Shown in pieces: positions 8,977-63,611 of a DNA stretch of 64,000 bases. Position 1 is the stretch's first letter, and each line of letters begins with the position of its first letter. This stretch comes from Escherichia phage vB_EcoP-101114UKE3: sequence record NC_070982.1; one strand, written 5' to 3'. A program made the position numbers and the translations under genes. Below the pieces are notes generated by a model, which was not told the DNA's origin, did not search any database, and saw nothing but the letters and a program-made list of their open reading frames with translations.

Positions 8977-8985
8977 TAATGTATA
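8977..8985 (+). promoter_or_regulatory. Candidate phage promoter element TAATGTATA
   Basis: Exact TAATGTATA 34 nt upstream of the ATG at 9019, just after the capsid terminator. Confidence 0.35.
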
Positions 8986-9780: not shown

Positions 9781-12423
9781 ATGATCGTTTATAATAACCA
9801 AGCACCTGATGCAGTGAATAACGTTGGGCAGTTTGGTGCTACTGAAGGCTCTATCGGAGCTTACAAGCAAGCAGCAGAGTATGCAGCTGACTCCAAATAT
9901 TGGGCACTGTTAGCGGAGTCTAAGTTTGGTACAATTGATGACTTGATCGCTGAAGTAGAGCGTCTGTATCAACAGGGTGTTCTGATGAAGCAGGATATCG
10001 AGGATCTTAAGCAGGATTTTAAAGATCAAGATGCTCGTCTGATGAGTTTGATTGCTCAAACTAACGCAGCGGTATCAGATGCGAATAATGCTGTAGCTCT
10101 AATTAATCAGAAACTTATTGAAGTCCAGAACCAGCTTGACGTTCTGTTAGGAATGTCCGTTGATGTAACCACACTTCCTCCGGGAACTCCGGCTACTGGT
10201 TCTTTTAATCCTAACACTGGTGTAGTCTCTCTAGGTATCCCAGAAGGCGAACCCGGAAAGGATGGTTCTGTTAAGGATTTAGACACAGCTCCTACTGGTG
10301 TTCCAGAGCTAGGTGACTTGGGTTTCTATGTTGATAAAGATGACAATACCGTCCATAAAACTACTCTAGAGAATATTGCTAACTTAATCCCATCTGTTCG
10401 TTCTGTTTCTGTTAATGGGGGACCAGCTCTTGATGGAGAGGTTGCTCTAACAATCAACAAAGAGACAGTAGGTTTAGGAAATGTTCTGAATGTTGCTCAG
10501 TACAGTCGTCAAGAGATTAATGACAAATTTGACAAGACTACCAAGACATACCAATCAAAAGCAGAGGCTGATGCTGATGCTCAGTATCGTCAAGTTGGAG
10601 AGAAAGTCTTAGTTTGGGAAGCTACTAAGTATGAATTCTACACTGTTGCTGCTAACAAAACACTAACTCCTGTTAAAACTGAAGGTAGAATCCTTACCGT
10701 TAACTCCCGTTCTCCAGATTCCAGTGGTAACATTGACATTACCATTCCAACAGGAAACCCTTCTCTGTATCTTGGTGAGATGGTGATGTTCCCTTACGAC
10801 CCATCTAAGAATATCTCCTACCCAGGAGTTCTTCCTGCTGATGGTCGTCTGGTATCAAAAGAATCTGCTTCAGATTTAGGCCCATCCCTTGTCAGCGGAC
10901 AGCTCCCTGTTGTTTCAGAAACTGAATGGCAATCGGGGGCTAAACAGTACTTCTCTTGGGGCAAGTTAGCAGACGGTATTACCGATGCGGATTCTACTAA
11001 TTTTATCAACATTCGACTCCCTGATTGGACTGGAGGGGAGGCAATAAGAGCACCAGATTCTGATAAAGACTCTCAGTACAATGGGTCTGTACAGGCTCAG
11101 AAACCTTATGTTGTTACTGTAAATAACCAAGCTCCTGATGAGATTACTGGTAATGTGAACATCTCCAGATCAATTTTAGGTGCTGCTTCTTCTGGAGCAA
11201 ACTCTGACATTACATCTTTATCTGGACTCACAACACCGCTATCCATCTCTCAAGGTGGTACTGGAGCTAAAGATGCTGCTGGTGCTCGTTCTAATTTAGG
11301 TCTAGGCTCAACAGCTACCCTCAATACAATACCTGTAGCCAATGGTGGCACAGGAGCAACTACTGTTGATGTTGCTCGTTCCAATTTATCCATAGACCGA
11401 ATAGATCAAGCCTCCGGGGAGAGTAAATTATTATCCCCTAACAAAGAAACCTACCTCTTTGTGGATAACAATGGGTGGGGCTGTTATAGTACCTCAGCTG
11501 GAAGGGTTGGTGATGTGGCTCTTTCTGTTGAAAGAGGCGGTACTGGAGCTAAAAATGCTGCTAGTGCCCGATCTAACTTGGGGTTGGGGAGTGTTTCCAC
11601 TCTAGATAACGTCCCTATCGCTAGTGGTGGGACAGGGGCTGGAGATGCTGCTGGTGCAAGGTTTAATCTTGGGTTAGGTAACTCAGCCACAATGAATACC
11701 GGAACTAACAGTGATAATGTTCTTAAGGTTGGTGATTTTGGAATTGGAAGACCTGACGGCGCTCTTGTTTTTGATACTACTTCACAAGACCAACTTCTTG
11801 CTGGACTTGACACTTATGGGCTGTGTGTGTTTAGGAATAACCAACAAATAGCAGCACCTTGGGACATATGGAACTACTCCTCAAACCTTTTCTTTAGGGC
11901 GGGTGACACATATAGTATGATAAGTATTCCGTTTGAGTCTGCCGGTAAGATAAAAGTTTTTGGTGGTGCATCAGGCAGTGGGTGGAAAACCTCAAGGACG
12001 GTATATGATACTGTAAATACAACTGTTGACGTCAATGGCTTTATCAAAGCAGCGTCACCAATAGTTAAGGTATTCCATGACGGAAGTTTTGAAACAAACG
12101 AACAATCTGATGGAGTTAGTGTTAAGAAAATCTCCACCGGGGTTTATTTAATTTCAGGGTGTCTTGGTCTTAATTCTGATGCAGGGTGGGGTGGGGTAGA
12201 TGGAGGTTTTGAAATCCCAATAGACCGAAACAAACAACCTAGAGTTTGGCTTGACTATGAGGTTAAAGAGGATGGTTCTCTTTTAATTAAAACTTATCAT
12301 AGAACCCATTCAACATCCCCAGCTTTTGCTAGAAACGAGTTGGAAGGTTTTTCTGACGGAGACCCTGTTGACATTCCTAAGGATGCGTTCATTTCGGTTC
12401 GTGTTGAAATGCCTTCTAAGTAA
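9781..12423 (+). CDS. Tail fibre protein with phage tail-fibre repeats (880 aa)
   Basis: Repeated GGTGA...ARSNLGLGS units and an N-terminal coiled-coil; RBS AAGGAG. Confidence 0.7.
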   Translation: MIVYNNQAPDAVNNVGQFGATEGSIGAYKQAAEYAADSKYWALLAESKFGTIDDLIAEVERLYQQGVLMKQDIEDLKQDFKDQDARLMSLIAQTNAAVSDANNAVALINQKLIEVQNQLDVLLGMSVDVTTLPPGTPATGSFNPNTGVVSLGIPEGEPGKDGSVKDLDTAPTGVPELGDLGFYVDKDDNTVHKTTLENIANLIPSVRSVSVNGGPALDGEVALTINKETVGLGNVLNVAQYSRQEINDKFDKTTKTYQSKAEADADAQYRQVGEKVLVWEATKYEFYTVAANKTLTPVKTEGRILTVNSRSPDSSGNIDITIPTGNPSLYLGEMVMFPYDPSKNISYPGVLPADGRLVSKESASDLGPSLVSGQLPVVSETEWQSGAKQYFSWGKLADGITDADSTNFINIRLPDWTGGEAIRAPDSDKDSQYNGSVQAQKPYVVTVNNQAPDEITGNVNISRSILGAASSGANSDITSLSGLTTPLSISQGGTGAKDAAGARSNLGLGSTATLNTIPVANGGTGATTVDVARSNLSIDRIDQASGESKLLSPNKETYLFVDNNGWGCYSTSAGRVGDVALSVERGGTGAKNAASARSNLGLGSVSTLDNVPIASGGTGAGDAAGARFNLGLGNSATMNTGTNSDNVLKVGDFGIGRPDGALVFDTTSQDQLLAGLDTYGLCVFRNNQQIAAPWDIWNYSSNLFFRAGDTYSMISIPFESAGKIKVFGGASGSGWKTSRTVYDTVNTTVDVNGFIKAASPIVKVFHDGSFETNEQSDGVSVKKISTGVYLISGCLGLNSDAGWGGVDGGFEIPIDRNKQPRVWLDYEVKEDGSLLIKTYHRTHSTSPAFARNELEGFSDGDPVDIPKDAFISVRVEMPSK

Positions 12424-12451: not shown

Positions 12452-12463
12452 AAGGAGATTTTA

Positions 12464-14611
12464 ATGTCTAGAGAACTAATGCCCAAATCTGGCATAATGA
12501 TGCCTCATGTAGTTGTAACCAGAGATGCGGCTGTTGTTGGCGTTTCTACTGTAGATGGGGCCGCTGGTGCTATCAACTTAACAGAAAAATACCTTCAGAA
12601 ATCTGACGCTGAAGCAACCTATCAAACGAAAGCAGAAGGGGCTACTAAGCAATATGTAACCGACGCTATCAACCCCATTATGACAAATGCTCTTTTTAAA
12701 GATGACCCCTTTGTTAATAATGACACACCTATTCGCTCTGGCGGTGGTAATGGTGTTGAATCGGTAGATATGATTAAAGTCACCCCTGAGAACACCATCA
12801 AACTAGGGAGCTATGCTTCTTCTGTTCAGGGGGTTGAGATTCATTCTGCTGGTCGTCTTCAGGTTGTTGATCAGAATGATAGTGGTGTAGAAACTAAATA
12901 CCCTGTGTATTCTAAGCGCTATCGTCCTGAGATTGAAGATTTACCTTTTGCTGCAATCGGTTCTTATGTTAAGGATTCAAAAGGTCGTACTGTTGGTGTA
13001 ACCCGTACCGGTATCAACTCTGATATCAAACAACTTACACAGAAAGTCACTTTTACTCAACCTGTAACCGTAGCCGATGCTGTAGGCGATTATGATGCAG
13101 TGACACTGAGACAGCTTCGTAACAGTGGTGGTGGTTCTGGAGGTCCTACCATGAGTGGTATCTCGAACTTTGGTATCGGTGATTTCCACTTACGCGATAG
13201 TCGTGCTTTTATCCCAGCTTTTGAAGTAGTGTCTGATGGTCAGCTTTTGAATCGTGCTGATTATCCAGATTTGTGGGCTTATGCTCAACTGCTATCTCCA
13301 ATCGAGGATTCTCTTTGGTTATCTAACATCTACCAGAGGGGTAAATACTCTACGGGTAACGGTACAACGACTTTCCGTGTTCCTGACCGAAATGGTATTC
13401 AAGAAGGGTCTCTGAAAGCTCTGTATGGTCGTGGTGATGGTGGAGCTTCGGCTGCTAATGGTCAAATATTTGATTCTGCTGCTCCTAACATTTATGGAGA
13501 TATTGGTGGTGTTGTTGCTTATGGCCAGACTGGAGCTATTCTACGAGGTCAAGAGGAACAACCTCTCGCCCCTCAACCTTCAACTGGAAATGGTGTCTTG
13601 AGAGTTAGTTTAGACGCCTCAAAAGCAAGTCCTGTATATGGTCGTTCCACCGATGAAATCCTAACCCGTAACTTTGTTGGTGTTTGGACTATTCGTGCTC
13701 ATGGTGGTTTTACTGCTGCTAATACTTCTTGGTCTGTTGTTAACAGTGACACAAATCGTCCTCCTAAAGGAACTAAAGCTTCTAGCGGTTCTGTTGTTGC
13801 TGAATATAAAATTGGTTCAGAAGTAGAGGCTTCTACTACGCTCCAAACTGATGCTTATATCGACGGAGCTTATTATGGGATTATCAATGTTTATAATAAA
13901 ACCAAAGGAGTTACCAAGCAATTAGCTTTTGACGATTCTGGAACCCTGAACTCTGATAGATATGTTGCTCGGTTTGGGACATTGATGTCTTGGAGTGAAA
14001 CAGGAAGTCGCAGAGGGACGTTTTCTACAGACAACCAAGGGATCGGTGCTAACTACTCTTTTAACTCTATACTGAGTGCTTCCCAAGCATCCCAAGGTGG
14101 ATACAAAACTACTACCCATGTAGGGATGATTCACAATGATGCTGGAACTTTTGCTGATTCTTGTTGGCACGTAGCTGGGGATGAAGATAACAAGTATGGT
14201 TGTCGTTTAACTCTTCGACCAAACAGAAATGAGATTTATTACTACACTTGGCAGCCAAGTTCAACCGGAACTTATACTCTTGCTATGAATCCTGTATCTG
14301 ATGAAAAGTTGAAACATAACATCCAAGATATCTCTCCTGATGAAGCAATTCGTGCGATAAAAGGTTTGGATTTCAAATCGTTTGTGTACAACAATGATAA
14401 TCAAGGAAGAACTCGTCGTGGTATCATTGCACAGCAGGCAGAGAAAGTTGAACCTCTTTATGTTAAAACTCGTAAATTCCATGACAACGATGGGGTAGAG
14501 CAGGAACAGAAAGAGTTGGATGCAACTCCAATGCTTTTAGATACCATGCAGGTTGTTCAAGATCTGCTGAAGCGTATTGAAGTTCTAGAAGCGAAGTTAG
14601 CAGAGAAGTGA
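12464..14611 (+). CDS. Tail fibre or tailspike with C-terminal intramolecular chaperone (peptidase S74-like) domain (715 aa)
   Basis: ATG at 12464 with AAGGAG RBS (the ORF-track start at 12326 overlaps the previous gene); C-terminal motif VSDEKLKHNI matches the SD-x-LK-x-NI autocleavage signature. Confidence 0.7.
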   Translation: MSRELMPKSGIMMPHVVVTRDAAVVGVSTVDGAAGAINLTEKYLQKSDAEATYQTKAEGATKQYVTDAINPIMTNALFKDDPFVNNDTPIRSGGGNGVESVDMIKVTPENTIKLGSYASSVQGVEIHSAGRLQVVDQNDSGVETKYPVYSKRYRPEIEDLPFAAIGSYVKDSKGRTVGVTRTGINSDIKQLTQKVTFTQPVTVADAVGDYDAVTLRQLRNSGGGSGGPTMSGISNFGIGDFHLRDSRAFIPAFEVVSDGQLLNRADYPDLWAYAQLLSPIEDSLWLSNIYQRGKYSTGNGTTTFRVPDRNGIQEGSLKALYGRGDGGASAANGQIFDSAAPNIYGDIGGVVAYGQTGAILRGQEEQPLAPQPSTGNGVLRVSLDASKASPVYGRSTDEILTRNFVGVWTIRAHGGFTAANTSWSVVNSDTNRPPKGTKASSGSVVAEYKIGSEVEASTTLQTDAYIDGAYYGIINVYNKTKGVTKQLAFDDSGTLNSDRYVARFGTLMSWSETGSRRGTFSTDNQGIGANYSFNSILSASQASQGGYKTTTHVGMIHNDAGTFADSCWHVAGDEDNKYGCRLTLRPNRNEIYYYTWQPSSTGTYTLAMNPVSDEKLKHNIQDISPDEAIRAIKGLDFKSFVYNNDNQGRTRRGIIAQQAEKVEPLYVKTRKFHDNDGVEQEQKELDATPMLLDTMQVVQDLLKRIEVLEAKLAEK

Positions 14612-14616
14612 GATAA

Positions 14617-14636
14617 GCCCCTTCGGGGGCTTTTAG
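14617..14636 (+). terminator. Rho-independent terminator with UUCG loop
   Basis: GCCCC-TTCG-GGGGC followed by TTTT. Confidence 0.5.
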
Positions 14637-14700
14637 GAGTGAAACTGGTGAATAAGTAATGAAACTACTATATCCAAAAGGAAAATGAAAGGAGAAGAAA

Positions 14701-14919
14701 ATGAAAATGATGAAACAGGTAACTTATGGTCTAGCTTGCTTAGGGACAGGTTTTGTGATTTCCACAGCAGTACCTGTAAATGCAGTAGGCTCTCATTCTA
14801 TTATAGAAGCTCCTGTAGAGAAGCTTAGTTCTCAATGTAAACAAAGGACCATTCAAAATAATTTGGTTGTTATTTGCCCAGACGCTCAATCTTCAGCTCT
14901 GAGAAAAATTCTTCCTTAA
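14701..14919 (+). CDS. Small protein with N-terminal signal peptide or membrane anchor (72 aa); holin-like candidate
   Basis: Hydrophobic N-terminus ending VNA; RBS AAAGGAGAAG; sits directly upstream of the lysozyme. Confidence 0.4.
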   Translation: MKMMKQVTYGLACLGTGFVISTAVPVNAVGSHSIIEAPVEKLSSQCKQRTIQNNLVVICPDAQSSALRKILP

Positions 14920-14952
14920 TTGACCTAAAATAACAACAAAAGGAGGTCAAAG

Positions 14953-15444
14953 ATGGACGCTATCGCATTGCCGCCTATACAGATGAGCCTAAGTCCGGCT
15001 GGTATGGAGTTTATCATGAAGCATGAAGGCATGAGAACTAAAGCCTATAAAGACTCCGCTGGAATCTGGACTATATGTGTAGGGGCTACGCGCGATATGA
15101 ATGGGTATCCAGTAAGACAAGGATTAACGTATTCTATAGAGGATTGTCTAGCTCTGCTAGATAGAGACACACAAGACTCTGTTCGTGCTACTCAGAAAAA
15201 CATAAGAGTTCCTATGCTAGCTCATGAATTTGATGCTGTCACTTCTTTCAACTTTAATGTTGGTGGTGGTGCTTTGTCAGCTTCAAAACTTAGGAAAGTG
15301 ATCAACGGAGATGTGAAGGGTGATGTTTACTCAGAGTTCTTACGTTGGGATAAGATAACTGTTAAAGGTGTAAAGCAGCGGAGTCCGGGACTTCACAATC
15401 GCAGGGTTGCAGAAGCAAATCTATACACTACAGGAAAATATTAA
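14953..15444 (+). CDS. Lysozyme (GH24-like) (163 aa)
   Basis: Motifs KHEG, YKDSAG and WTICVG match the Glu/Asp/Thr catalytic pattern of T4-type lysozymes; RBS AAGGAGG. Confidence 0.75.
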   Translation: MDAIALPPIQMSLSPAGMEFIMKHEGMRTKAYKDSAGIWTICVGATRDMNGYPVRQGLTYSIEDCLALLDRDTQDSVRATQKNIRVPMLAHEFDAVTSFNFNVGGGALSASKLRKVINGDVKGDVYSEFLRWDKITVKGVKQRSPGLHNRRVAEANLYTTGKY

Positions 15445-15456
15445 TGGAGGTGCCTT

Positions 15457-16260
15457 TTGGCTATCGAAACAACTGCGGTAGTTACTACCGATTTAAACCC
15501 CCTATACCCACGGGACAGGGATTATCTTTATGAAGGGGCTGCCCAGATACGACTGGTCAAACAAGTATTAATTAACACCTTTCCTAACATCACAGAGCCA
15601 GTTCAACTTGACTCAGATTCTTTCAACATCTTAGCAAACAAGGTTTCCTTTACTGGAGATTCTATGGATGTTGGAGGTTTGATGATCAAAAACTTAACTC
15701 CGGGAACTGGTGATAAAGATGCTGTAACCAAAGGTCAGATGGAAGCTTTCATGTTAAACTGGATGCAGAATAAACTCTATCGTATTGGGGCTTACTATAT
15801 CACTGAAGAAGATATCAACCCCGGAGATTCTAGCTCTCTTGGTTTTGGTTCTTGGGCTAAAGTAACTGGTGTTGTTATGGGTACTGGTGTTGTTAACCCT
15901 GATGGCTCTGTTCCTAATGCTCAGCGTGTAGAGTTCCAAGCAGGTGGTACTGGTGGTCGTGTATTTAACACAATTCGTGCTGACAACATGCCTCTGACTA
16001 CAATCAATGGTTCTAGTTTTCAAGTTAGTTCTTATTCTCACTCACATAATATCACAATGGGTCGTGGAGATGCTAGTGGTCACAACAGCAGTCCTAATTG
16101 GTATAGTCCGGGTGGTGGTTATACTCAGGTAACTGACACTAACACCCACTCTCACTCAATTACAGGTTCTGTTAGTTTTGGACGTGATGATGTATCGAGA
16201 CAACCCATCAACACTTTGCCGCCTTTCAGAGCAGCGCATATCTGGAGACGTATTAGCTAA
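15457..16260 (+). CDS. Tail fibre or receptor-binding protein with His-x-His motifs (267 aa); apparent TTG start
   Basis: SHSHN and THSHS motifs, G/S/T-rich; TTG at 15457 preceded by GGAGG 6 nt upstream; no in-frame ATG near the 5' end. Confidence 0.45.
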   Translation: MAIETTAVVTTDLNPLYPRDRDYLYEGAAQIRLVKQVLINTFPNITEPVQLDSDSFNILANKVSFTGDSMDVGGLMIKNLTPGTGDKDAVTKGQMEAFMLNWMQNKLYRIGAYYITEEDINPGDSSSLGFGSWAKVTGVVMGTGVVNPDGSVPNAQRVEFQAGGTGGRVFNTIRADNMPLTTINGSSFQVSSYSHSHNITMGRGDASGHNSSPNWYSPGGGYTQVTDTNTHSHSITGSVSFGRDDVSRQPINTLPPFRAAHIWRRIS

Positions 16261-16269
16261 GGAGGAACT

Positions 16270-19200
16270 ATGGCGCTTTATCCAATAAAATCTTTAGGGG
16301 CTGTAGGGGTTATTGCTGACCAAGCTCCGACTGATTTAGCACCTAATGCTTTCACTAATGCTATCAATGCCCGCTTTGTAGAGCAAAGAGTTTTTAAGAC
16401 GGGGGGCAATGCCCCTCTTTCTTATGTAGAAGAAGATAAAGAGATTACACCACTTTCTTTTATATCAATGCCTTTTGACTACTATAGTGCAGGTAATAGC
16501 TTTCTGATTGTTGGTACAGACAAAAAGCTATACAAGCTAACAGATGAAAGTTTGACAGATATTAGCCGAAAGGTTGCTACTGTCACAAAAAGAGCTTCCG
16601 CTTCTATTAAGATATATCCGGTTGTTTCTCAGATTGTTCCTAAAGAAACTTCTATTTCAATGAATTTCAATCAAACTAAAACCTTGGAAGTTTCTATTCT
16701 TCCTGAAGATGCTAATAACACAGCTTTAGTTTGGGAGGTTAGTAATTCTTCTTATGGTAAAGTAGAAGCTGACACCGAGAACCCTAAAACTGCAACCTTG
16801 ACGTCTTATGAAAAAGAAGGGAATTTAGTAGTTACTGTATCAACAGCTGATAAATCTATTAGTGCTCAGATTGCAGTAAACATCATAGATGGTGATTCTG
16901 GTATCTTCTTAAGTCAGGATACAATAACTGTCCGCAAAGGTGGTAACACAACACTAACTGCTGTTACTGGAAAAACTCCTGTAACTTGGGTCTCTAGTAA
17001 TGCTTCTGTTGTGTCTGTAACACCTAATGCTAATACACTGACAGCTACTTTGTCTGCTAATGGTGAGGGTACTGTAACAATAACTGCTGATAACGGAACT
17101 AAGAGTGCTTCTTGTCAAATTACTGTTATACCTCAGATAGACAGTATCACTCTGAGTCAGACAAGCGTTCAAATGAGCAGGGGTACTCAGTATGTTTTAA
17201 CTGCTACGGTTAATCCTTCAGATGCTCCCAATAAAAGCATAACTTGGACTTCCTCTAATCCTGCCATTGCCACAGTTTCTGGAAATAGTACAGAAGCGGT
17301 AATAACAGGGTTACTAGCTGGGTTTACTGAAATCACAGCTGTTACTCAAGAGGGTGATAGATCAGCAACCTGTACAGTGAGAGTTGATTTAGCTGGGAGA
17401 ATGATGCGAACTTCTGCAATGGCTTTATCAGAACCTGTTGTAGATTCTATACAAGAAGAAGAAACCAATAATACTCCTATCGAATCAGAAGAGGTTTTAT
17501 ATTTTGTTAATGAGCCATCTGGAGTTGATACCTCAGGGATGTATGAAGGTAACAACTTCTATGATTACTCAAACGTCAATGATATGGAAGGTTTTGCACG
17601 AGCTGCACTTATGTCCAGCGATACTCCGTTGCAATCTTTATCACTAGATATCATCGATGCCTCTCTTGATGTTGGGGAAGATATTGTAATTACAGCCAAT
17701 GCTTTGCCTGAGGGAGAGTATTTCTATCAGTGGACAGTGGACAAAGCAGGATATGTTTCAACCACATCTACTACCGGGAAATCTCTAAAACTGACAGCTA
17801 TTCGTAAAGGTGAGATCAAAGTTACTTGTACTGCTAGTCAAATGACTCAGAAAGATTATGATGCTTTTGACGACTATCCTTGGTATCACACCATAATCTC
17901 TAACTGTGCAGTGGCTACCACTCACTATGAAACACCACAGGTCAAAGAATTTGAATCTGAGTATTTCGTAGATCTTCCGGGATGGGGTGAGCAAACAGTC
18001 GTTGATAATGATGGCAACCCTTCTGTTAAGAAATTTAACTGGAAGTGTGAGCGTATTCGTGCATTCAACAACAGACTTTTTGCTCTGAATATGAGGGAAT
18101 CTAATGCATCTGGTGTAACTACTCACTACCCTCTAAGACTTCGGTGGTCGAATTTCGCTAACGAAAACAAAGCTCCATCTCTTTGGGATGATTATGCTTA
18201 TGATCGTTTAACAACTTCAGACCTATCAGCAAACATTGTTGGTCAAACTGAGGCTTTGGAAAATGGGTACGCTGGGTATATAGATTTAGCAGATTCTAAC
18301 GGAAGCTTGATTGATGTACTTCCTCTGAAAGATTACCTTTTTGTTTACACGGAGTTCGAAACCTACATTGGTTCTCCAACCAATAACACATATCAGCCTC
18401 TTATGTTTAAGAAGCTGTTTAATGACTCTGGCATACTTGCTCCTGAGTGTGCAGTTGAAGTCGAAGGTGGACACTTCGTAGTAACTCAAAATGATGTGAT
18501 CTTACACAATGGTGCATCTAAAAAATCTATAGCATCTAACCGAGTCAAGAATCTTCTCATTAATGAGATCTGTCTAGTAAACCCTCTAGCTACTAGAGTT
18601 CACCTACACCAAGACAAGAAAGAGGTTTGGGTTTTATATGTAGGTCCGGGAGAGCCTAAAGAGAGTTTTGCTTGTAATAAAGCCGCTGTTTGGAATTATG
18701 AGTTTGACACTTGGTCTTTCCGTACAATACCATATGCTCAGTGTATTGGGTTAGTCGATCCACCAGTTCTTGAGAGAGGTCCAATCTGGGCAGATTTTCA
18801 AGAGATCACTTGGGATGATCCCTCTATTAACCAATTAGTCTGGAGAAAGGATGCTAATAACTTCCGTCAAAGGATTACAATAGTTGGCTCTTTCCTGAAA
18901 GGATTCTATCAAGTGGATGTTGGTGCTCTGGATTACATCTATGATAGAACCAACGATAGGATTATAGAAAAACCTTTAGAAATGAGGCTAGAAAGAACTG
19001 GTATTGATTTTGATAGTGTCACTAACGAGTGGAATCAAAAACATATTAATAGATTTAGACCTCAAGTCACTGGTACGGGTACCTATACTTTTGAAGTCGG
19101 TGGAAGTCAATTCTCAAACGAGTATGGACATAATCACTCAACTAAAGAGTTTAGGGTAGGCTCAGATCGTCATGTATCCGTGAGACTGAACCATCCATAC

Positions 19201-19290
19201 CTATTCTATAATGTTATAGATAATGATGTTAACAGTAATGCTTCTATGAATGGTTTAACTATAGAGTTTAGTGTTGGCGGTCGAAGATAA
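16270..19290 (+). CDS. Large virion or tail protein with multiple Ig-like (BIG2-like) domains (1006 aa)
   Basis: Several repeats of the VTW-SSN-x-VATV...TAT type; RBS AAGGAGG. Confidence 0.6.
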   Translation: MALYPIKSLGAVGVIADQAPTDLAPNAFTNAINARFVEQRVFKTGGNAPLSYVEEDKEITPLSFISMPFDYYSAGNSFLIVGTDKKLYKLTDESLTDISRKVATVTKRASASIKIYPVVSQIVPKETSISMNFNQTKTLEVSILPEDANNTALVWEVSNSSYGKVEADTENPKTATLTSYEKEGNLVVTVSTADKSISAQIAVNIIDGDSGIFLSQDTITVRKGGNTTLTAVTGKTPVTWVSSNASVVSVTPNANTLTATLSANGEGTVTITADNGTKSASCQITVIPQIDSITLSQTSVQMSRGTQYVLTATVNPSDAPNKSITWTSSNPAIATVSGNSTEAVITGLLAGFTEITAVTQEGDRSATCTVRVDLAGRMMRTSAMALSEPVVDSIQEEETNNTPIESEEVLYFVNEPSGVDTSGMYEGNNFYDYSNVNDMEGFARAALMSSDTPLQSLSLDIIDASLDVGEDIVITANALPEGEYFYQWTVDKAGYVSTTSTTGKSLKLTAIRKGEIKVTCTASQMTQKDYDAFDDYPWYHTIISNCAVATTHYETPQVKEFESEYFVDLPGWGEQTVVDNDGNPSVKKFNWKCERIRAFNNRLFALNMRESNASGVTTHYPLRLRWSNFANENKAPSLWDDYAYDRLTTSDLSANIVGQTEALENGYAGYIDLADSNGSLIDVLPLKDYLFVYTEFETYIGSPTNNTYQPLMFKKLFNDSGILAPECAVEVEGGHFVVTQNDVILHNGASKKSIASNRVKNLLINEICLVNPLATRVHLHQDKKEVWVLYVGPGEPKESFACNKAAVWNYEFDTWSFRTIPYAQCIGLVDPPVLERGPIWADFQEITWDDPSINQLVWRKDANNFRQRITIVGSFLKGFYQVDVGALDYIYDRTNDRIIEKPLEMRLERTGIDFDSVTNEWNQKHINRFRPQVTGTGTYTFEVGGSQFSNEYGHNHSTKEFRVGSDRHVSVRLNHPYLFYNVIDNDVNSNASMNGLTIEFSVGGRR

Positions 19291-19322: not shown

Positions 19323-19337
19323 TAATTGGAGGTACTT

Positions 19338-20306
19338 ATGGGTGCTGGAGGTTTTCGAAAGAATACTGGTAGAAACAACACCACACTTCCGTACAATGTT
19401 GGTTTTCTAAACAATGTGCAGGATACAGAAACTTACAACGTTGCCGTCTATGATGAACTACAAAAAGTTAGTACAGCAACTAATCAGATGTTTCAAGCCA
19501 TTGATGAAATACATGAAGAAATTGATGTTAGGATTAAAGCTCTTAATGCAATGAATCTTCAATTTGATGAACTTGAAAACAGAATTACTACAGAGATCGA
19601 AACAGCTATTGCTGATATTCAAACACAGATGGGCAATCTGTCCACTGAAGATATTTGGGATAATTCAGTACAACCGCCAGTTAAGCTAGAAAGTTCTATG
19701 GCAGGGTTTAAAACTTCTATAGAAGGTAATGAGGTTAAGATACAATCTGTTGAGGGAATCGTAAACCAGCAGGGAGAGGAAATTGGCTTAGTTCAAACAG
19801 AGATCTCTAATATCAATAGCAGCCTATCTTCTTATATGAAGCTATCTGACTACGAGGCTACGTGGGGGGTTAACTCAAATGTCAACGGTAGGTATGCTGG
19901 TGTCAAACTAACTAACAATGGCACGAACAGTCAGTTCCAAGTTACGGCTGATAAGTTTGTTGTGGGTGACGGTAACTCAGGTAATACACCTTTTGTGTTT
20001 GAAGGAGGTCGAGCTAAGATAGAGTTTGCTGATATTAAGAATGTCAATATCACAACTGCTCAGATTGCTAATGCTCGTATCCAGTTTGCTCAGATAGATA
20101 ACGTGTGGATTACTGATGGTCAGATTGCCAATCTTACAGCTAACAAGATCACTGCTGGCTCTATGTCCGGTTCTAACTGGAGACTTACAGTAGGTGGAGA
20201 TTTTGTAATGGGTGGTACAGGCGGTTCTCAGTTATGGATGAACGGTAATAGAATAGATTTTTATGATGGGAGTGGAACTCTTCGCATAAGAATAGGGAGT
20301 TGGTAA
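19338..20306 (+). CDS. Tail or virion structural protein with coiled-coil N-terminus (322 aa)
   Basis: ATG at 19338 with GGAGG RBS; position in the tail module. Confidence 0.5.
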   Translation: MGAGGFRKNTGRNNTTLPYNVGFLNNVQDTETYNVAVYDELQKVSTATNQMFQAIDEIHEEIDVRIKALNAMNLQFDELENRITTEIETAIADIQTQMGNLSTEDIWDNSVQPPVKLESSMAGFKTSIEGNEVKIQSVEGIVNQQGEEIGLVQTEISNINSSLSSYMKLSDYEATWGVNSNVNGRYAGVKLTNNGTNSQFQVTADKFVVGDGNSGNTPFVFEGGRAKIEFADIKNVNITTAQIANARIQFAQIDNVWITDGQIANLTANKITAGSMSGSNWRLTVGGDFVMGGTGGSQLWMNGNRIDFYDGSGTLRIRIGSW

Positions 20307-21351: not shown

Positions 21352-22149
21352 ATGGATAGGATTTTAGGAGTTTCAGAACTAGACCCACTGGTTCAACAAG
21401 CTGCTAAGAAGTATGGTATTCCTGCTGCTCTTGTTCATGCGGTGATTCAGAGGGAGTCTAGTGGTAAACCCTCTGCCGCTTCAGGAACAGGGCCAGTAGG
21501 ATTGATGCAGATTAGTAAAGGCTTGGCTAAAGATTATGGATATAAACTTGAAGATAGGTTAGACCCTGCAAAGAATATTGACATGGGTGCTAGATATTTA
21601 AGAGATAACCTGAAAGCTTTTGACGGCGATGTGAGGAAGGCTTTGGTGGGGTATTCAGAAGGGACTGGTGGTGCTAAGCAAATGTTTGCTGGTAAGAAAG
21701 GGTTTACACCTCAAGCTTTAGATTCAATGAATAATAAGCTGTTCCTACCATTCTTTGATAAGAACACAGCAGCGGCACAAGTGGCTAATCCTGTAGGTGC
21801 TTTGAAAGCAGTACAGCCTGTGGACCAGTTTGATTCTAATACGCTGACTAGAGAAGGTGCTGCAAATGCTCCCACTCAAGCAGAGATGGCTGCAAGCAAG
21901 GCTGGGGCTTTGGGTGGTCGTCCTGTAGAGTTTTACTCTGATGAACAACAGTCTGGAGAAGATCAAAAACCTCAACAGAACTTTGGTAATGCTGTGTTGG
22001 CAGCTGCTTCTATGCTTGCAGGAAAACAGCCTAACTCTCAAACTGTACAGAGAGCACACGCCCCTACTCAAGCAGGTTCTCGATATAGTCCACAAACACA
22101 AGCTGTGCTGAGACGTCTGTCTAGCATAGGTACTGACATTTACAGATAA
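21352..22149 (+). CDS. Lytic transglycosylase (SLT domain) virion protein (265 aa)
   Basis: N-terminal motif VHAVIQRESSGKPSAASGTGPVGLMQIS resembles the SLT catalytic region; RBS AAGGAGAGG. Confidence 0.65.
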   Translation: MDRILGVSELDPLVQQAAKKYGIPAALVHAVIQRESSGKPSAASGTGPVGLMQISKGLAKDYGYKLEDRLDPAKNIDMGARYLRDNLKAFDGDVRKALVGYSEGTGGAKQMFAGKKGFTPQALDSMNNKLFLPFFDKNTAAAQVANPVGALKAVQPVDQFDSNTLTREGAANAPTQAEMAASKAGALGGRPVEFYSDEQQSGEDQKPQQNFGNAVLAAASMLAGKQPNSQTVQRAHAPTQAGSRYSPQTQAVLRRLSSIGTDIYR

Positions 22150-25894: not shown

Positions 25895-25905
25895 TATAAT
25901 GTATA
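25895..25905 (+). promoter_or_regulatory. Candidate promoter element TATAATGTATA
   Basis: TATAAT overlapping TAATGTATA, 37 nt upstream of the ATG at 25942. Confidence 0.35.
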
Positions 25906-33444: not shown

Positions 33445-33669
33445 TTAAACTACACAGAATAAATACATTGCTGTTTCAGGGGAAGGTATGTGGTCACTAG
33501 GATATCTAACCCTAATCCACTCATCATCTTCTGCTACATAATAAGCCCAATAAGACCCATTTTCATTAATAAAGAACTTGAAGGTACAACCAAAGATTTG
33601 GTTATTGTGTTCCCATACTGCATGAAACTGAGTAACACCTTCTGGTATTGTAAGTTCCGCTCTGATCAT
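33445..33669 (-). CDS. Hypothetical protein (74 aa)
   Basis: ORF whose start overlaps the o-spanin stop. Confidence 0.4.
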   Translation of the reverse strand: MIRAELTIPEGVTQFHAVWEHNNQIFGCTFKFFINENGSYWAYYVAEDDEWIRVRYPSDHIPSPETAMYLFCVV

Positions 33670-33926
33670 TGTATTCCTCTCTCCTTTAGAGCTTTAAGCA
33701 AACCGTTGTGGTTAGCGGCACAGGTTGTATAAGTGTCCTGATACCACTCGAGTGTTGTTGCAAGTGCTACTCCCTGTCCACTCTGAAGTAAAGGGAGGTC
33801 TACATCACATTCAGCTTTTAGGTTTGTTGGTAAGGGCATTAGCTGCCTGCTGTTGTCGCTCGTTGAACAAGCTGACATACTCATCACTAGCACACACATT
33901 GTAAAAAACTGGCTTAGTCTTTTCAT
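33666..33926 (-). CDS. o-spanin candidate (Rz1-like outer-membrane lipoprotein, 86 aa)
   Basis: Signal peptide ending MSAC (lipobox-like), proline-rich mature part with Cys; embedded in the 3' end of the i-spanin gene in another frame. Confidence 0.5.
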   Translation of the reverse strand: MKRLSQFFTMCVLVMSMSACSTSDNSRQLMPLPTNLKAECDVDLPLLQSGQGVALATTLEWYQDTYTTCAANHNGLLKALKERGIQ

Positions 33927-34158
33927 AATGCATCTCTTTGTAAATAGTTTCCGTGTTCTTCTTCCAGTTAGATAAACCAGTCAGAACTTTCTGAGCCACT
34001 TCATCAGCAGCCTTAGCTCTCTCAACCTCAATCTCTTGCTGTTTCTTCTCATGGTCAAGAGCATTACTATCACTTCTGTATTGCTCAAACTTGACACCAC
34101 CAAAGAAAATAATAGCTGTGAAAATAAGAAAGCCTATATTGTTTTGAAGCTTTTCCAT
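33811..34158 (-). CDS. i-spanin candidate (Rz-like, about 115 aa)
   Basis: N-terminal transmembrane helix IGFLIFTAIIFFGGV followed by coiled-coil; ATG at 34158 with GGAG RBS. Confidence 0.5.
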   Translation of the reverse strand: MEKLQNNIGFLIFTAIIFFGGVKFEQYRSDSNALDHEKKQQEIEVERAKAADEVAQKVLTGLSNWKKNTETIYKEMHYEKTKPVFYNVCASDEYVSLFNERQQQAANALTNKPKS

Positions 34159-36767: not shown

Positions 36768-36900
36768 AATATCCAGAGTTGTAGTTTAGGGCGCATTTCT
36801 CGGCCTCTTCTATGTCGTCTGTGTTTAGGATATTAACCCAACCACCAACTTCATCAAAACCCTCTTCTACCTCATTGAACCACACGCTGTATTTCTTCAT
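36721..36900 (-). CDS. Small hypothetical protein (59 aa), paralog of 35986..36153
   Basis: Starts MKKYSVWFNEVEEG; shared GW-x-IL-x-TDD-x-EEAE motif. Confidence 0.35.
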   Translation of the reverse strand: MKKYSVWFNEVEEGFDEVGGWVNILNTDDIEEAEKCALNYNSGYYERNWEHDEILQSSL

Positions 36901-37072
36901 CTTGATAAGACCCTTCCCCAATCCTTGATGTAACATCGACCATCAACCCACTTGGTCTCTGATTTAAACTTTTGAGAGATTCTTGTTTCACAGTCTTCTT
37001 TACTGTAATCACCAAGAGCATCCATCACCCAAAGAAACAGAGCAATTACAATAGACCAGATTAGAAACTTCT

Positions 37073-37465
37073 TCATCGTATCACCAGAGGCTCTTCAGAG
37101 TACACAGGAGAGGTTATTTCTACCGGAGGTGCTGCTCTAAGGTCATTAAGCCTTACGCCCTTCAGCATACCATCTAGGTGGTCCATTTTAGGGATACCTA
37201 CAGGGAAGTCATCAATCCAAACATCCACAAAGAAACCCAAGCTCTGAGTGACGGAATCCTTCTGAACACCATTGCAAAAGATAACAGGAATATCTAGACT
37301 TGCTGCATCTGCTAGAAGCTCCTCATTTGAATACCCATTAGGTTGAGCAAAACGATAGGTGACAATACGTACATCATGTCCACGAGATTTCATAAGACCT
37401 ACAATGTGGGTCCACATCTCTTTGTCCACTGTAAAAGTGTCATCATAATCTAAACCAATATTCAT
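37073..37465 (-). CDS. HAD-like hydrolase, possible nucleotidase (130 aa)
   Basis: N-terminal motif I IGLDYDDTFT (DxDxT). Confidence 0.45.
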   Translation of the reverse strand: MNIGLDYDDTFTVDKEMWTHIVGLMKSRGHDVRIVTYRFAQPNGYSNEELLADAASLDIPVIFCNGVQKDSVTQSLGFFVDVWIDDFPVGIPKMDHLDGMLKGVRLNDLRAAPPVEITSPVYSEEPLVIR

Positions 37466-44819: not shown

Positions 44820-45005
44820 TTATAGCATACAAAGAATAATAACAAGAGGTAGTGTTATAGCAAAATGTACCAGAACAACACTACCTAGCTTGATAGCTTT
44901 AACATCCTCTTCTGCTGGGTTTTCTTTAATTGCTAAATTTCGAGCTTTATATATAACAGTACCAACTATTAACGACCACACGGCCCACACAATCAGTGAA
45001 ATCAT
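44820..45005 (-). CDS. Small two-TM membrane protein (61 aa), tandem paralog of 45015..45194
   Basis: Two hydrophobic helices flanking a KENP-containing loop. Confidence 0.4.
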   Translation of the reverse strand: MISLIVWAVWSLIVGTVIYKARNLAIKENPAEEDVKAIKLGSVVLVHFAITLPLVIILCML

Positions 45006-45014
45006 ATCAAACCC

Positions 45015-45194
45015 TTATGCAGTCAACAGGTGGAGAAGGAAAGGAATGACAACAGAGAAGACTACCAGAGCAATGCTGCCATGTTTAATGGGTTTAGCGT
45101 CATTCGGGTTCTCTTTAAGCATCTGTTTCTGAGCTACATAAACGATACCGCCAACAAAAATTGCCCATACAGACCATACGATTGCTGAAAACAT
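45015..45194 (-). CDS. Small two-TM membrane protein (59 aa), tandem paralog of 44820..45005
   Basis: ATG at 45194 with AAGGA RBS; same helix-LKENP-helix layout. Confidence 0.4.
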   Translation of the reverse strand: MFSAIVWSVWAIFVGGIVYVAQKQMLKENPNDAKPIKHGSIALVVFSVVIPFLLHLLTA

Positions 45195-45257
45195 ACTCAT
45201 ATCCTTATAAAGAAGTTCGCCCCACCTCTTGAACAAAGAGACAGGGCGGAGGTTTGA

Positions 45258-51818: not shown

Positions 51819-52016
51819 TTACCTTTTGTTTAAAATTTCTTTTGTACAAGAAGTCCCGTTACACACGAGAACTGTTTGAGTTATAGAATCGACAACTGTT
51901 ACATGGCTGCCGCATTGAGTTATGATTTGACCTCTCCCTGAATCTTTAGAGATGCATTCATCAGCGGCGATCGCTGACACACTGAATAAGGAGAGGAAAA
52001 ATAGAATCTTTTTCAT
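51819..52016 (-). CDS. Small secreted cysteine-rich protein (65 aa)
   Basis: Signal peptide MKKILFFLSLFSVSAIA followed by about 48 residues with 4 Cys. Confidence 0.45.
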   Translation of the reverse strand: MKKILFFLSLFSVSAIAADECISKDSGRGQIITQCGSHVTVVDSITQTVLVCNGTSCTKEILNKR

Positions 52017-63353: not shown

Positions 63354-63611
63354 TCAGTAGAAGGTGTGTGTAGAGTCGTCGTTCATAGATAACCAAACGA
63401 AGAAGACAATCACACAGAAAGCAATAATACCGAGAGTTGCAAGGATTATAGTGTTAGCTAATGTGATATCTAACACGCTTTGCAGATATATAAAGAACTG
63501 TACGACACCACATACCATCAGCACAACCCCAACGACAATGAGGAGCCAATATGTGCAGAGAAGGACTGCATCTAATAGTGATACATACTTTGGATGATCT
63601 TTATGTCTCAC
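63354..63611 (-). CDS. Small membrane protein with two hydrophobic helices (85 aa)
   Basis: Hydrophobic stretches LLCTYWLLIVVGVVLMVCGVV and IILATLGIIAFCVIVFFVWL; apparent GTG start. Confidence 0.35.
   Translation of the reverse strand: MRHKDHPKYVSLLDAVLLCTYWLLIVVGVVLMVCGVVQFFIYLQSVLDITLANTIILATLGIIAFCVIVFFVWLSMNDDSTHTFY

Follow-up and report, generated by a model that had tools for sequence, protein, structure and literature searches.

Gene organization at the locus

The window considered here, the whole 64,000-nucleotide stretch of DNA that was analyzed (Escherichia phage vB_EcoP-101114UKE3, NC_070982.1), belongs to a Gordonclarkvirinae (phiEco32/SU7-like) coliphage of the Kuravirus group. 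Positions 14000-16500 share 100% identity with Escherichia phage vB_EcoP-101114BS3, 99% with vB_EcoP_SU7 (Gordonclarkvirinae, Suseptimavirus), and 80-95% with approximately 90 other phiEco32-like/Kuravirus-group coliphages, and the region of the two genes described below is 100% identical to MZ234015. An earlier note on this DNA had reported a 72-aa protein with a single N-terminal hydrophobic segment encoded directly upstream of a T4-type lysozyme, the two being set between tail-fiber genes. Both ORFs are as described, each preceded by a strong Shine-Dalgarno sequence, with the lysozyme gene beginning 33 nt downstream of the small gene, and the pair is indeed flanked by the gene for the distal subunit of the long tail fiber upstream and that for the short tail fiber downstream (Table 1). 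The note also called this placement atypical, which holds relative to lambda-type cassettes, but the arrangement is a fixed and already described hallmark of the subfamily, and that of T4 t is similar. In the other frames of the lysozyme gene, there is no plus-strand ORF of at least 30 aa that could represent an embedded Rz1-style gene.

The spanin genes are found approximately 19 kb from the pair, on the opposite strand and among middle genes, with the o-spanin gene overlapping the 3' end of the i-spanin gene. Their presence agrees with a spanin census in which the phiEco32 spanin family is listed (PMC6139136). The window also encodes two paralogous 2-TMD proteins, conserved in 96 of these phage genomes, which are formally alternative holin candidates; their genes sit in the DNA-replication (middle) region, and neither is annotated as a holin.

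Table 1. Coordinates of the two genes, their flanking elements, and other relevant features of the window
Feature	Position	Strand	Evidence or remark
Long-tail-fiber proximal subunit	9781..12423		Domain matches; SU10 cryo-EM paper (PMC9509320)
Long-tail-fiber distal subunit, Peptidase_S74 chaperone domain	12464..14611		Upstream of the pair; domain matches; PMC9509320
GC-rich UUCG stem-loop with short U-run	14615..14637	+	Directly 3' of the distal long-tail-fiber stop codon; dG -12.6 kcal/mol
Conserved intergenic element, (A/G)GTAATGAAA(C/T)…TATAT…CCAAAAGG	14655..14685	+	Spacer between hairpin and ribosome-binding site
Ribosome-binding site of the 72-aa gene, AGGAG	14690-14694	+	6 nt before the first ATG; RBS annotated at the equivalent position in SU7
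Putative holin, 72 aa, predicted single-pass N-in/C-out	14701..14919	+	ORF; PHROG 11161; annotation in relatives
Ribosome-binding site of the lysozyme gene, AAGGAGG	14940-14946	+	Read from sequence; RBS annotated in SU7
GH24 (T4/P22-type) muramidase, 163 aa, predicted soluble endolysin	14953..15444	+	PF00959; PHROG 7; PDB homologs
Short tail fiber, Gp10_C	15457..16260		Downstream of the lysozyme gene; domain matches; PMC9509320
Nozzle protein, Big_2	16270..19290		After the short-tail-fiber gene; domain matches; PMC9509320
Tail needle, Phage_Tail_Tip	19326..20306		After the nozzle gene; ejection-protein genes next
SLT-domain transglycosylase, SU10 gp20 counterpart	21352..22149		PF01464, 7.6e-26
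o-spanin, 86-aa lipoprotein, lipobox …MSAC at Cys20	33666..33926	-	SU7 homolog 'O-spanin'; PHROG 2425
i-spanin (Rz-like)	33811..34158	-	PHROG 1152, 1.7e-35; N-terminal membrane segment; SU7 annotation
Two tandem paralogous 2-TMD proteins	44820..45005, 45015..45236	-	PHROG 9296, no assigned function

The downstream gene encodes a GH24 lysozyme

The product of the downstream gene matched the Pfam family Phage_lysozyme (PF00959) over positions 2-125 of the 125 in the profile (E = 9.6e-31; 107 bits, against a cutoff of 22.3), PHROG 7 endolysin (7e-46), and GH24 endolysins in the PDB (1e-27 to 1e-11), the best of which was 8app (1.3e-27) and which included those of P22 (2anv) and P21 (3hde) as well as the RrrD enzyme. 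In the BLASTP alignment, E25, D34, and T40 correspond to E11, D20, and T26 of T4 lysozyme, the Glu-Asp-Thr catalytic triad; the Glu-(8 residues)-Asp-(5 residues)-Thr spacing is present, and the motif EG…Y.D..G..T is kept in the lysozymes of relatives. Judged by its sequence, the 163-aa protein is unambiguously a GH24 phage lysozyme, with predicted muramidase activity.

The enzyme is a single catalytic domain on its own, lacking any structural module. A scan for a SAR or signal segment found no 19-residue window at KD 1.5 or with a Hessa sum of <=8, and the N-terminus (MDAIALPPIQMSLSPAG) has Asp, Pro, and Gln residues and is without a basic n-region. A SAR endolysin of the P21 R or P1 Lyz type was ruled out, as the lysozyme has no N-terminal hydrophobic segment. 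The absence of such a segment points instead to a soluble endolysin that would accumulate in the cytoplasm and, having neither signal nor SAR segment, would need a hole-forming partner, or holin. In the window and in positions 1-40000 of the SU7 annotation, the GH24 enzyme was the only endolysin candidate noticed, which implies that it is needed for lysis.

The 72-aa protein belongs to a lineage-restricted family linked to the endolysin gene

All 97 matching phage records, each of them Kuravirus-like, carry the small protein, as do 24 metagenomic clusters. When 1.84 billion representative proteins were searched with a HMMER profile, only two further relatives emerged (P0025 and P0026, with 49% and 39% identity), both in the same gene context, for a total of 26 clusters, and this conservation across phage records and metagenomic clusters argues that the ORFs are not due to chance. 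The linkage to the endolysin gene that is expected of a class III holin is kept in all 97 records and in every metagenomic relative examined, down to 39% identity, with the small gene always 33 nt ahead of the endolysin gene, and the gene order of tail fiber, small gene, GH24 lysozyme, and short tail fiber is the same in every context examined. The related C3 phages 7-11 and GAP52 (PMC4281155) lack the pair, as does phage Privateer (PMC7881722), and the two genes have apparently been gained or lost together.

Comparison of the 72-aa protein with Pfam yielded no match at E <=0.01 and only chance-level matches at E <=10 (12 family members), NCBIfam yielded nothing relevant, and a profile search of the PDB yielded no match. 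The protein therefore falls outside the curated holin families of Pfam and NCBIfam, including Phage_holin_T, and no link of the family to known holins, antiholins, or inhibitors, and no fusion, was found in Pfam, NCBIfam, the PDB, or the 1.84 billion proteins. The sole labeled match, at 1e-40, was to PHROG 11161 'holin', which is the same family named from annotation. By these comparisons, the 72-aa protein belongs to a lineage-restricted orphan family.

Across the 97 phage records, the small gene is labeled 'putative holin' in phiEco32 (phi32_16) and SU10 (SU10_014), 'holin' in SU7, IME267, the BASEL phages Bas86-94, and many others, and 'holin class III' in phage Paul, where the label was assigned by holin specialists; the lysozyme gene is labeled 'lysis protein', 'lysozyme', or 'endolysin'. 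For no member of the 72-aa family did a search of the literature turn up an experiment on hole formation, lethality, or lysis, and two papers that resembled functional holin tests (PMC10204329, PMC12661215) were set aside, as they concern unrelated phages. The holin label is unproven and derives from gene position and one hydrophobic segment.

Sequence features and predicted topology of the 72-aa protein

The protein (MKMMKQVTYGLACLGTGFVISTAVPVNAVGSHSIIEAPVEKLSSQCKQRTIQNNLVVICPDAQSSALRKILP) comprises an n-region (MKMMKQ), a hydrophobic helix at approximately residues 7-26, a linker at residues 29-40, and a presumably periplasmic core, Cys46…Cys59. One uncharged hydrophobic run (residues 6-31; maximum KD19, 1.66) is present, and a hydropathy scan found no second hydrophobic segment, leaving the exactly one predicted transmembrane segment that characterizes class III holins. 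Across the family, the uncharged run is 24-27 residues in length, and approximately 50% of the segment is made up of Gly, Ala, Ser, Thr, and Cys, as in SAR domains.

Conservation is unevenly distributed along the protein. In the 26 full-length sequences, down to 39% identity, Y9, G10, C13, and G17 of the hydrophobic helix are invariant and lie on one helical face, and G10, C13, G17, and S21, at positions i, i+3, i+7, and i+11, make up a single face of small residues. The end of the segment resembles a signal peptidase I site (V/T-x-A; V26-x-A28 in the window), with A28 invariant at -1 and V or T at -3 in 26 of 26 sequences and Pro usual at -4. The linker is variable and is the only part to vary between genera, whereas the C-terminal core is almost invariant (L42-S43-x2-C46-x2-R49-x-I51-x2-N54-L55-x-V57-I58-C59-P60), such that 21 of 32 residues are invariant in the periplasmic domain as compared with 4 of 18 in the helix. 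AlphaFold2, run on the family alignment, returned a low-confidence model (mean pLDDT 52, pTM 0.17) with a helix at residues 3-22 and a beta hairpin at residues 47-58, between two cysteines. A lipoprotein, o-spanin, or u-spanin reading of C13 was rejected, as the surrounding Y-G-L-A-C, with Gly at -3, does not fit the lipobox [LVI][ASTVI][GAS]C; only about six hydrophobic residues precede C13.

The two N-terminal lysines, the acidic flank following the helix, and the invariant Cys pair favor an N-in/C-out topology, and the C-terminal domain is probably periplasmic and disulfide bonded. How the protein is anchored is less easily read: the charges and the Cys pair fit a C-out orientation, but the V/T-x-A site and the weak hydrophobicity fit cleavage or SAR-type release equally well, so that a cleavable or releasable signal is as good a reading of the N-terminus as a stable membrane anchor. 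For calibration, a simple unweighted sum on the Hessa scale was compared for T4 RI, T4 T, lambda S, and lambda Rz. The segment of the 72-aa protein scores +4.6, similar to the lambda S segments (+4.3 to +5.6) and weaker than the SAR domain of T4 RI (+2.2) and the segment of T4 T (-1.4), a measure that does not discriminate between these types of segment.

Transcription of the pair

According to the earlier note, the pair follows a terminator. The hairpin itself (7-bp stem at ~14615-14632; z = -2.0 for the fold) is present and is conserved in SU7, phiEco32, L009, and L010, but it is followed by only ~4 U, fell below the threshold of a terminator scan, and was not called, which makes it at best a leaky terminator or an mRNA 3'-end hairpin.

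In phiEco32, middle and late promoters consist of an experimentally defined single element, tAATGTAtA, that is recognized by gp36 (PMC8948821). Exact copies occur in the window in front of the adaptor gene, at 8977 (+), and also at 25897 (+), whereas no match within 1 mismatch of the phiEco32 late-promoter consensus TAATGTATA occurs upstream of the pair. A 1-mismatch match at 12462 was discarded, as it merely contains the start codon of the distal-fiber gene. Given the absence of a consensus promoter before the small gene, the simplest route to transcription of the pair is from the promoter at 8977, with read-through of the hairpin. The spacer between the hairpin and the ribosome-binding site, however, holds a conserved element, GTAATGAAAC, which is retained in relatives with a small protein only ~49-62% identical, matches the gp36 promoter consensus at 6 of 9 positions, and occurs once in the window. 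Because this element survives divergence of the coding sequence, it may be a dedicated weak late promoter of the gp36 (phage sigma) type for the pair, a possible but unproven role. Whether by read-through or from such a weak local promoter, we infer that the two genes are co-transcribed.

Discussion

The best explanation for the two genes, to which we assign a probability of roughly 60%, is that they encode a class III-type single-pass holin and a soluble endolysin of a Kuravirus-group coliphage. Under this model, the pair would be transcribed late, within the structural operon, and the 163-aa GH24 muramidase would accumulate folded and active in the cytoplasm, as it has no export signal. The 72-aa protein would span the inner membrane once, its short N-terminus cytoplasmic and its 45-residue C-terminal domain periplasmic, as in class III holins, and its helix would oligomerize via the conserved small-residue face of G10, C13, G17, and S21. 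At a programmed time, it would form lethal holes through which the lysozyme is released to the murein, and the separately encoded i-/o-spanin pair (33666..34158, minus strand) would then disrupt the outer membrane. The ORFs, the identity of the GH24 enzyme and its triad, its lack of an export signal, the linkage and synteny of the two genes, and the conservation pattern can be read directly from the data, whereas for the small protein we infer membrane topology, oligomerization, and hole formation.

That the two genes are a lysis pair, one of the two options raised in the earlier note, is supported; it is also the standing database annotation and the view taken in the literature (PMC7881722, PMC9965538, PMC4281155). 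The other option was that the lysozyme is a virion (tail or ejection) hydrolase used at infection, with the small protein as its secreted or assembly partner. Such a role would explain the location among tail genes, where the pair is embedded between the long- and short-tail-fiber genes and is apparently co-transcribed with them. GH24 domains also do occur in some virion proteins, such as T4 gp5. The published SU10 data nonetheless speak strongly against it. In the SU10 proteome, 34 phage proteins were detected, including all structural neighbors of the pair (CDS 11-13, 16-18, and 20-24), whereas CDS14 (putative holin) and CDS15 (lysis protein) were not, even though the sample was PEG-concentrated phage, deliberately not purified on CsCl, such that even non-structural proteins were seen as contaminants. 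The SU10 cryo-EM model of the tail is likewise fully accounted for by gp6, 11, 12, 13, 16, 17, and 18 (PMC9509320). The wall-degrading activity for ejection already resides in SU10 in gp20, a transglycosylase, for which the window encodes an SLT-domain homolog. The lysozyme is, furthermore, a free-standing 163-aa catalytic domain, and a virion role would leave the phage with no other endolysin noticed in the window or in positions 1-40000 of the SU7 annotation. We therefore regard the virion enzyme as very improbable and the proposal as largely refuted already.

The identity of the hole-forming protein is less settled. In the main alternative, which we think possible but distinctly unlikely, the 72-aa protein is a Sec-exported or SAR-type periplasmic regulator and the true holin lies elsewhere, for example in the paired 2-TMD proteins (44820..45236, minus strand). 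Cleavage after A28 would yield a 44-residue disulfide-stapled peptide, or the protein could be released from the membrane in a SAR-like manner, and it might serve as a lysis regulator comparable to the T4 RI antiholin or as a modulator of the lysozyme, possibly by way of a thiol-disulfide switch of C13, C46, and C59. The N-terminus does follow the rules for a cleavable Sec signal, with a basic n-region followed by an invariant site of the signal-peptidase type in which V or T occupies -3 and A occupies -1, most often with Pro at -4, and the segment is weakly hydrophobic, rich in Gly, Ala, Ser, Thr, and Cys, and positive in the simple Hessa sum. That measure, on the other hand, cannot separate the segment from the genuine membrane segments of lambda S, the range of which it falls within, and an uncharged run of 24-27 residues is long for a cleaved signal. 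The most conserved part of the protein is the periplasmic domain rather than the helix, and an invariant Cys pair flanks the predicted beta hairpin, as would suit a regulator. Against this, Y9, G10, C13, and G17 are invariant on one face of the hydrophobic segment down to 39% identity, which is unexpected for a disposable signal peptide and suggests a function for the helix as such. Of the three invariant cysteines, one lies in the potentially releasable segment, an arrangement that recalls the SAR thiol switch of P1 Lyz, and T4 RI provides a precedent for an N-terminus that can look like a cleavable signal and yet act as a SAR domain.

Gene context enters into the weighing as well. A gene immediately before the endolysin gene is in the canonical position for a holin, and the strict linkage of the two genes, their apparent co-gain and co-loss, the class III label of the phage Paul homolog, and the absence of both proteins from the SU10 virion proteome all favor the holin-endolysin pair. 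The small protein shows no similarity to curated holin families, and other conserved small membrane proteins, namely the 2-TMD proteins of PHROG 9296 found in the same 96 genomes, could provide the holin in its place; these are, however, encoded among DNA-replication (middle) genes and lack holin annotation.

The pair itself is already known: its annotation dates back to phiEco32 (2008), and several papers describe its position among tail genes. What is new is limited to the recognition that the holin assignment concerns an orphan family whose sequence is also compatible with a periplasmic role of the signal-cleaved or SAR type. The practical value lies in cleaner annotation, in that the GH24 enzyme should be treated as the phage endolysin and not as a tail enzyme, whereas the putative 'holin' label of its neighbor has been copied into approximately 100 genomes and PHROG 11161. 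Kuravirus-group phages are popular candidates for therapy, and members that infect K-12 now exist (BASEL Bas86-94), among them Bas86 and Bas87, in which the small protein is 100% identical. A bolder proposition, which we offer tentatively and consider rather doubtful, is that the Kuravirus-group 'holin' is either mis-named or the founder of a new family of minimal single-pass holins unrelated to T4 T. In the former case, it would be a periplasmic mini-protein of ~44 residues, cleaved or SAR-released, with a disulfide-stapled hairpin and a timing switch formed by C13, C46, and C59, and the PHROG 9296 proteins would be the hole-former. If either is true, lysis control in Kuravirus-group phages would differ from the textbook classes.

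Comparison with known lysis systems

The closest counterparts are phi32_16/phi32_17 of phiEco32, SU10_014/015, and SU7_13/14, which are orthologous to the pair, with small proteins 78-100% identical and the same order of long-tail-fiber distal subunit, small gene, GH24 lysozyme, short tail fiber, and nozzle. There is no difference of substance between these and the window, as only the linker (residues 29-40) varies between genera.

T4 offers a looser parallel. T, the class III archetype, shares with the 72-aa protein a single membrane segment, a predicted N-in/C-out topology, a functional periplasmic domain, and periplasmic cysteines; t is located directly after tail-fiber genes (37/38), as is the small gene; and T4 lysozyme E is likewise a soluble GH24 muramidase with the same triad. 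T is, however, far larger (218 aa); its periplasmic domain has ~160 residues and its membrane segment is strongly hydrophobic. It shows no sequence similarity to the 72-aa protein and is encoded apart from e, whereas the putative holin and lysozyme genes of the window are adjacent. T4 RI resembles the 72-aa protein in its small size (97 vs 72 aa), its signal-like, weakly hydrophobic N-terminus, and its small Cys-containing periplasmic domain. Again the two sequences show no similarity, rI lies away from the endolysin gene, and RI acts on the periplasmic domain of T, a partner for which no equivalent was identified in the window; the invariant residues within the hydrophobic segment also set the 72-aa family apart from RI.

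The S-R-Rz/Rz1 cassette of lambda has in common with the window a holin gene (putative in the window) immediately upstream of the endolysin gene, marginal hydrophobicity of the membrane segments, and two-component spanins. The N-terminus of the small protein (MKM…) even resembles the dual-start motif of lambda S107, but the second Met is not conserved in the family, and an S107/S105-like dual start was rejected as a family feature. Lambda S differs in having three membrane segments and a cytoplasmic C-terminal tail, R is a transglycosylase rather than a GH24 muramidase, and the lambda spanin genes are contiguous with S and R, whereas those of the window are set well apart on the other strand.

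Upstream element and start of the putative holin gene

Between the UUCG hairpin that follows the long-tail-fibre distal gene and the ribosome-binding site of the gene for the 72-aa putative holin lies a conserved intergenic element (see the table), which is still carried by relatives with protein identity as low as ~49%. This element agrees at 6/9 positions with tAATGTAtA, the promoter consensus of the phiEco32 phage sigma factor gp36 (PMC8948821), a likeness that makes it a candidate for a weak, dedicated late promoter. A second match to the late-promoter consensus, TAATGTCTA at 12462-12470 (+), has a single mismatch but was rejected as a promoter, as it simply includes the ATG start (12464) of the long-tail-fibre distal gene.

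The N-terminus of the small protein, M-K-M-M-K (14701-14712, +), resembles the dual-start motif (MKM) of lambda S107/S105. The second methionine varies across the family, and the resemblance is therefore probably coincidental. One metagenomic database protein of 76 aa, P0028, has the first 24 residues of an aligned stretch of 33 in common with the family; what comes after them is hydrophobic but bears no relation to the family, and a frameshift or a chimeric assembly is the probable cause.

Other small hydrophobic proteins

Two tandem paralogues belonging to PHROG 9296 both carry a pair of strongly hydrophobic segments and are kept in the same set of 96 Kuravirus-like genomes. In formal terms, they count as alternative candidates for a holin or an antiholin. 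An 85-aa ORF has two strongly hydrophobic segments and a marginal third, and no match to it was found in PHROG. The signal-like N-termini of the two small Cys-containing ORFs read MKKILFFLSLFSVSAIA|ADEC… and MKKFLIWSIVIALFLWV…, respectively, and these may be secreted or membrane proteins of the early or middle class.

Features of the window discussed in this section
Feature	Coordinates	Strand	Context
Conserved element (A/G)GTAATGAAA(C/T)…TATAT…CCAAAAGG	14655-14685	+	between hairpin and small-gene RBS
Tandem paralogous small proteins, PHROG 9296	44820-45005 and 45015-45236	-	among replication genes
85-aa ORF	63354-63611	-	early-gene region
Two small Cys-containing ORFs	51819-52016 and 36897-37076	-	N-terminal signal-like segments
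Two-component spanin genes, overlapped architecture	33666-34158	-	

Spanin genes

A distance of ~19 kb separates the holin/endolysin pair from the spanin genes, which are encoded on the other strand and adjoin the phage sigma-factor gene. In the related phage vB_EcoP_SU7 (locus L002, 33816-34853), an HNH homing-endonuclease gene sits between the i-spanin and o-spanin genes, whereas the spanin locus of the window is without one.
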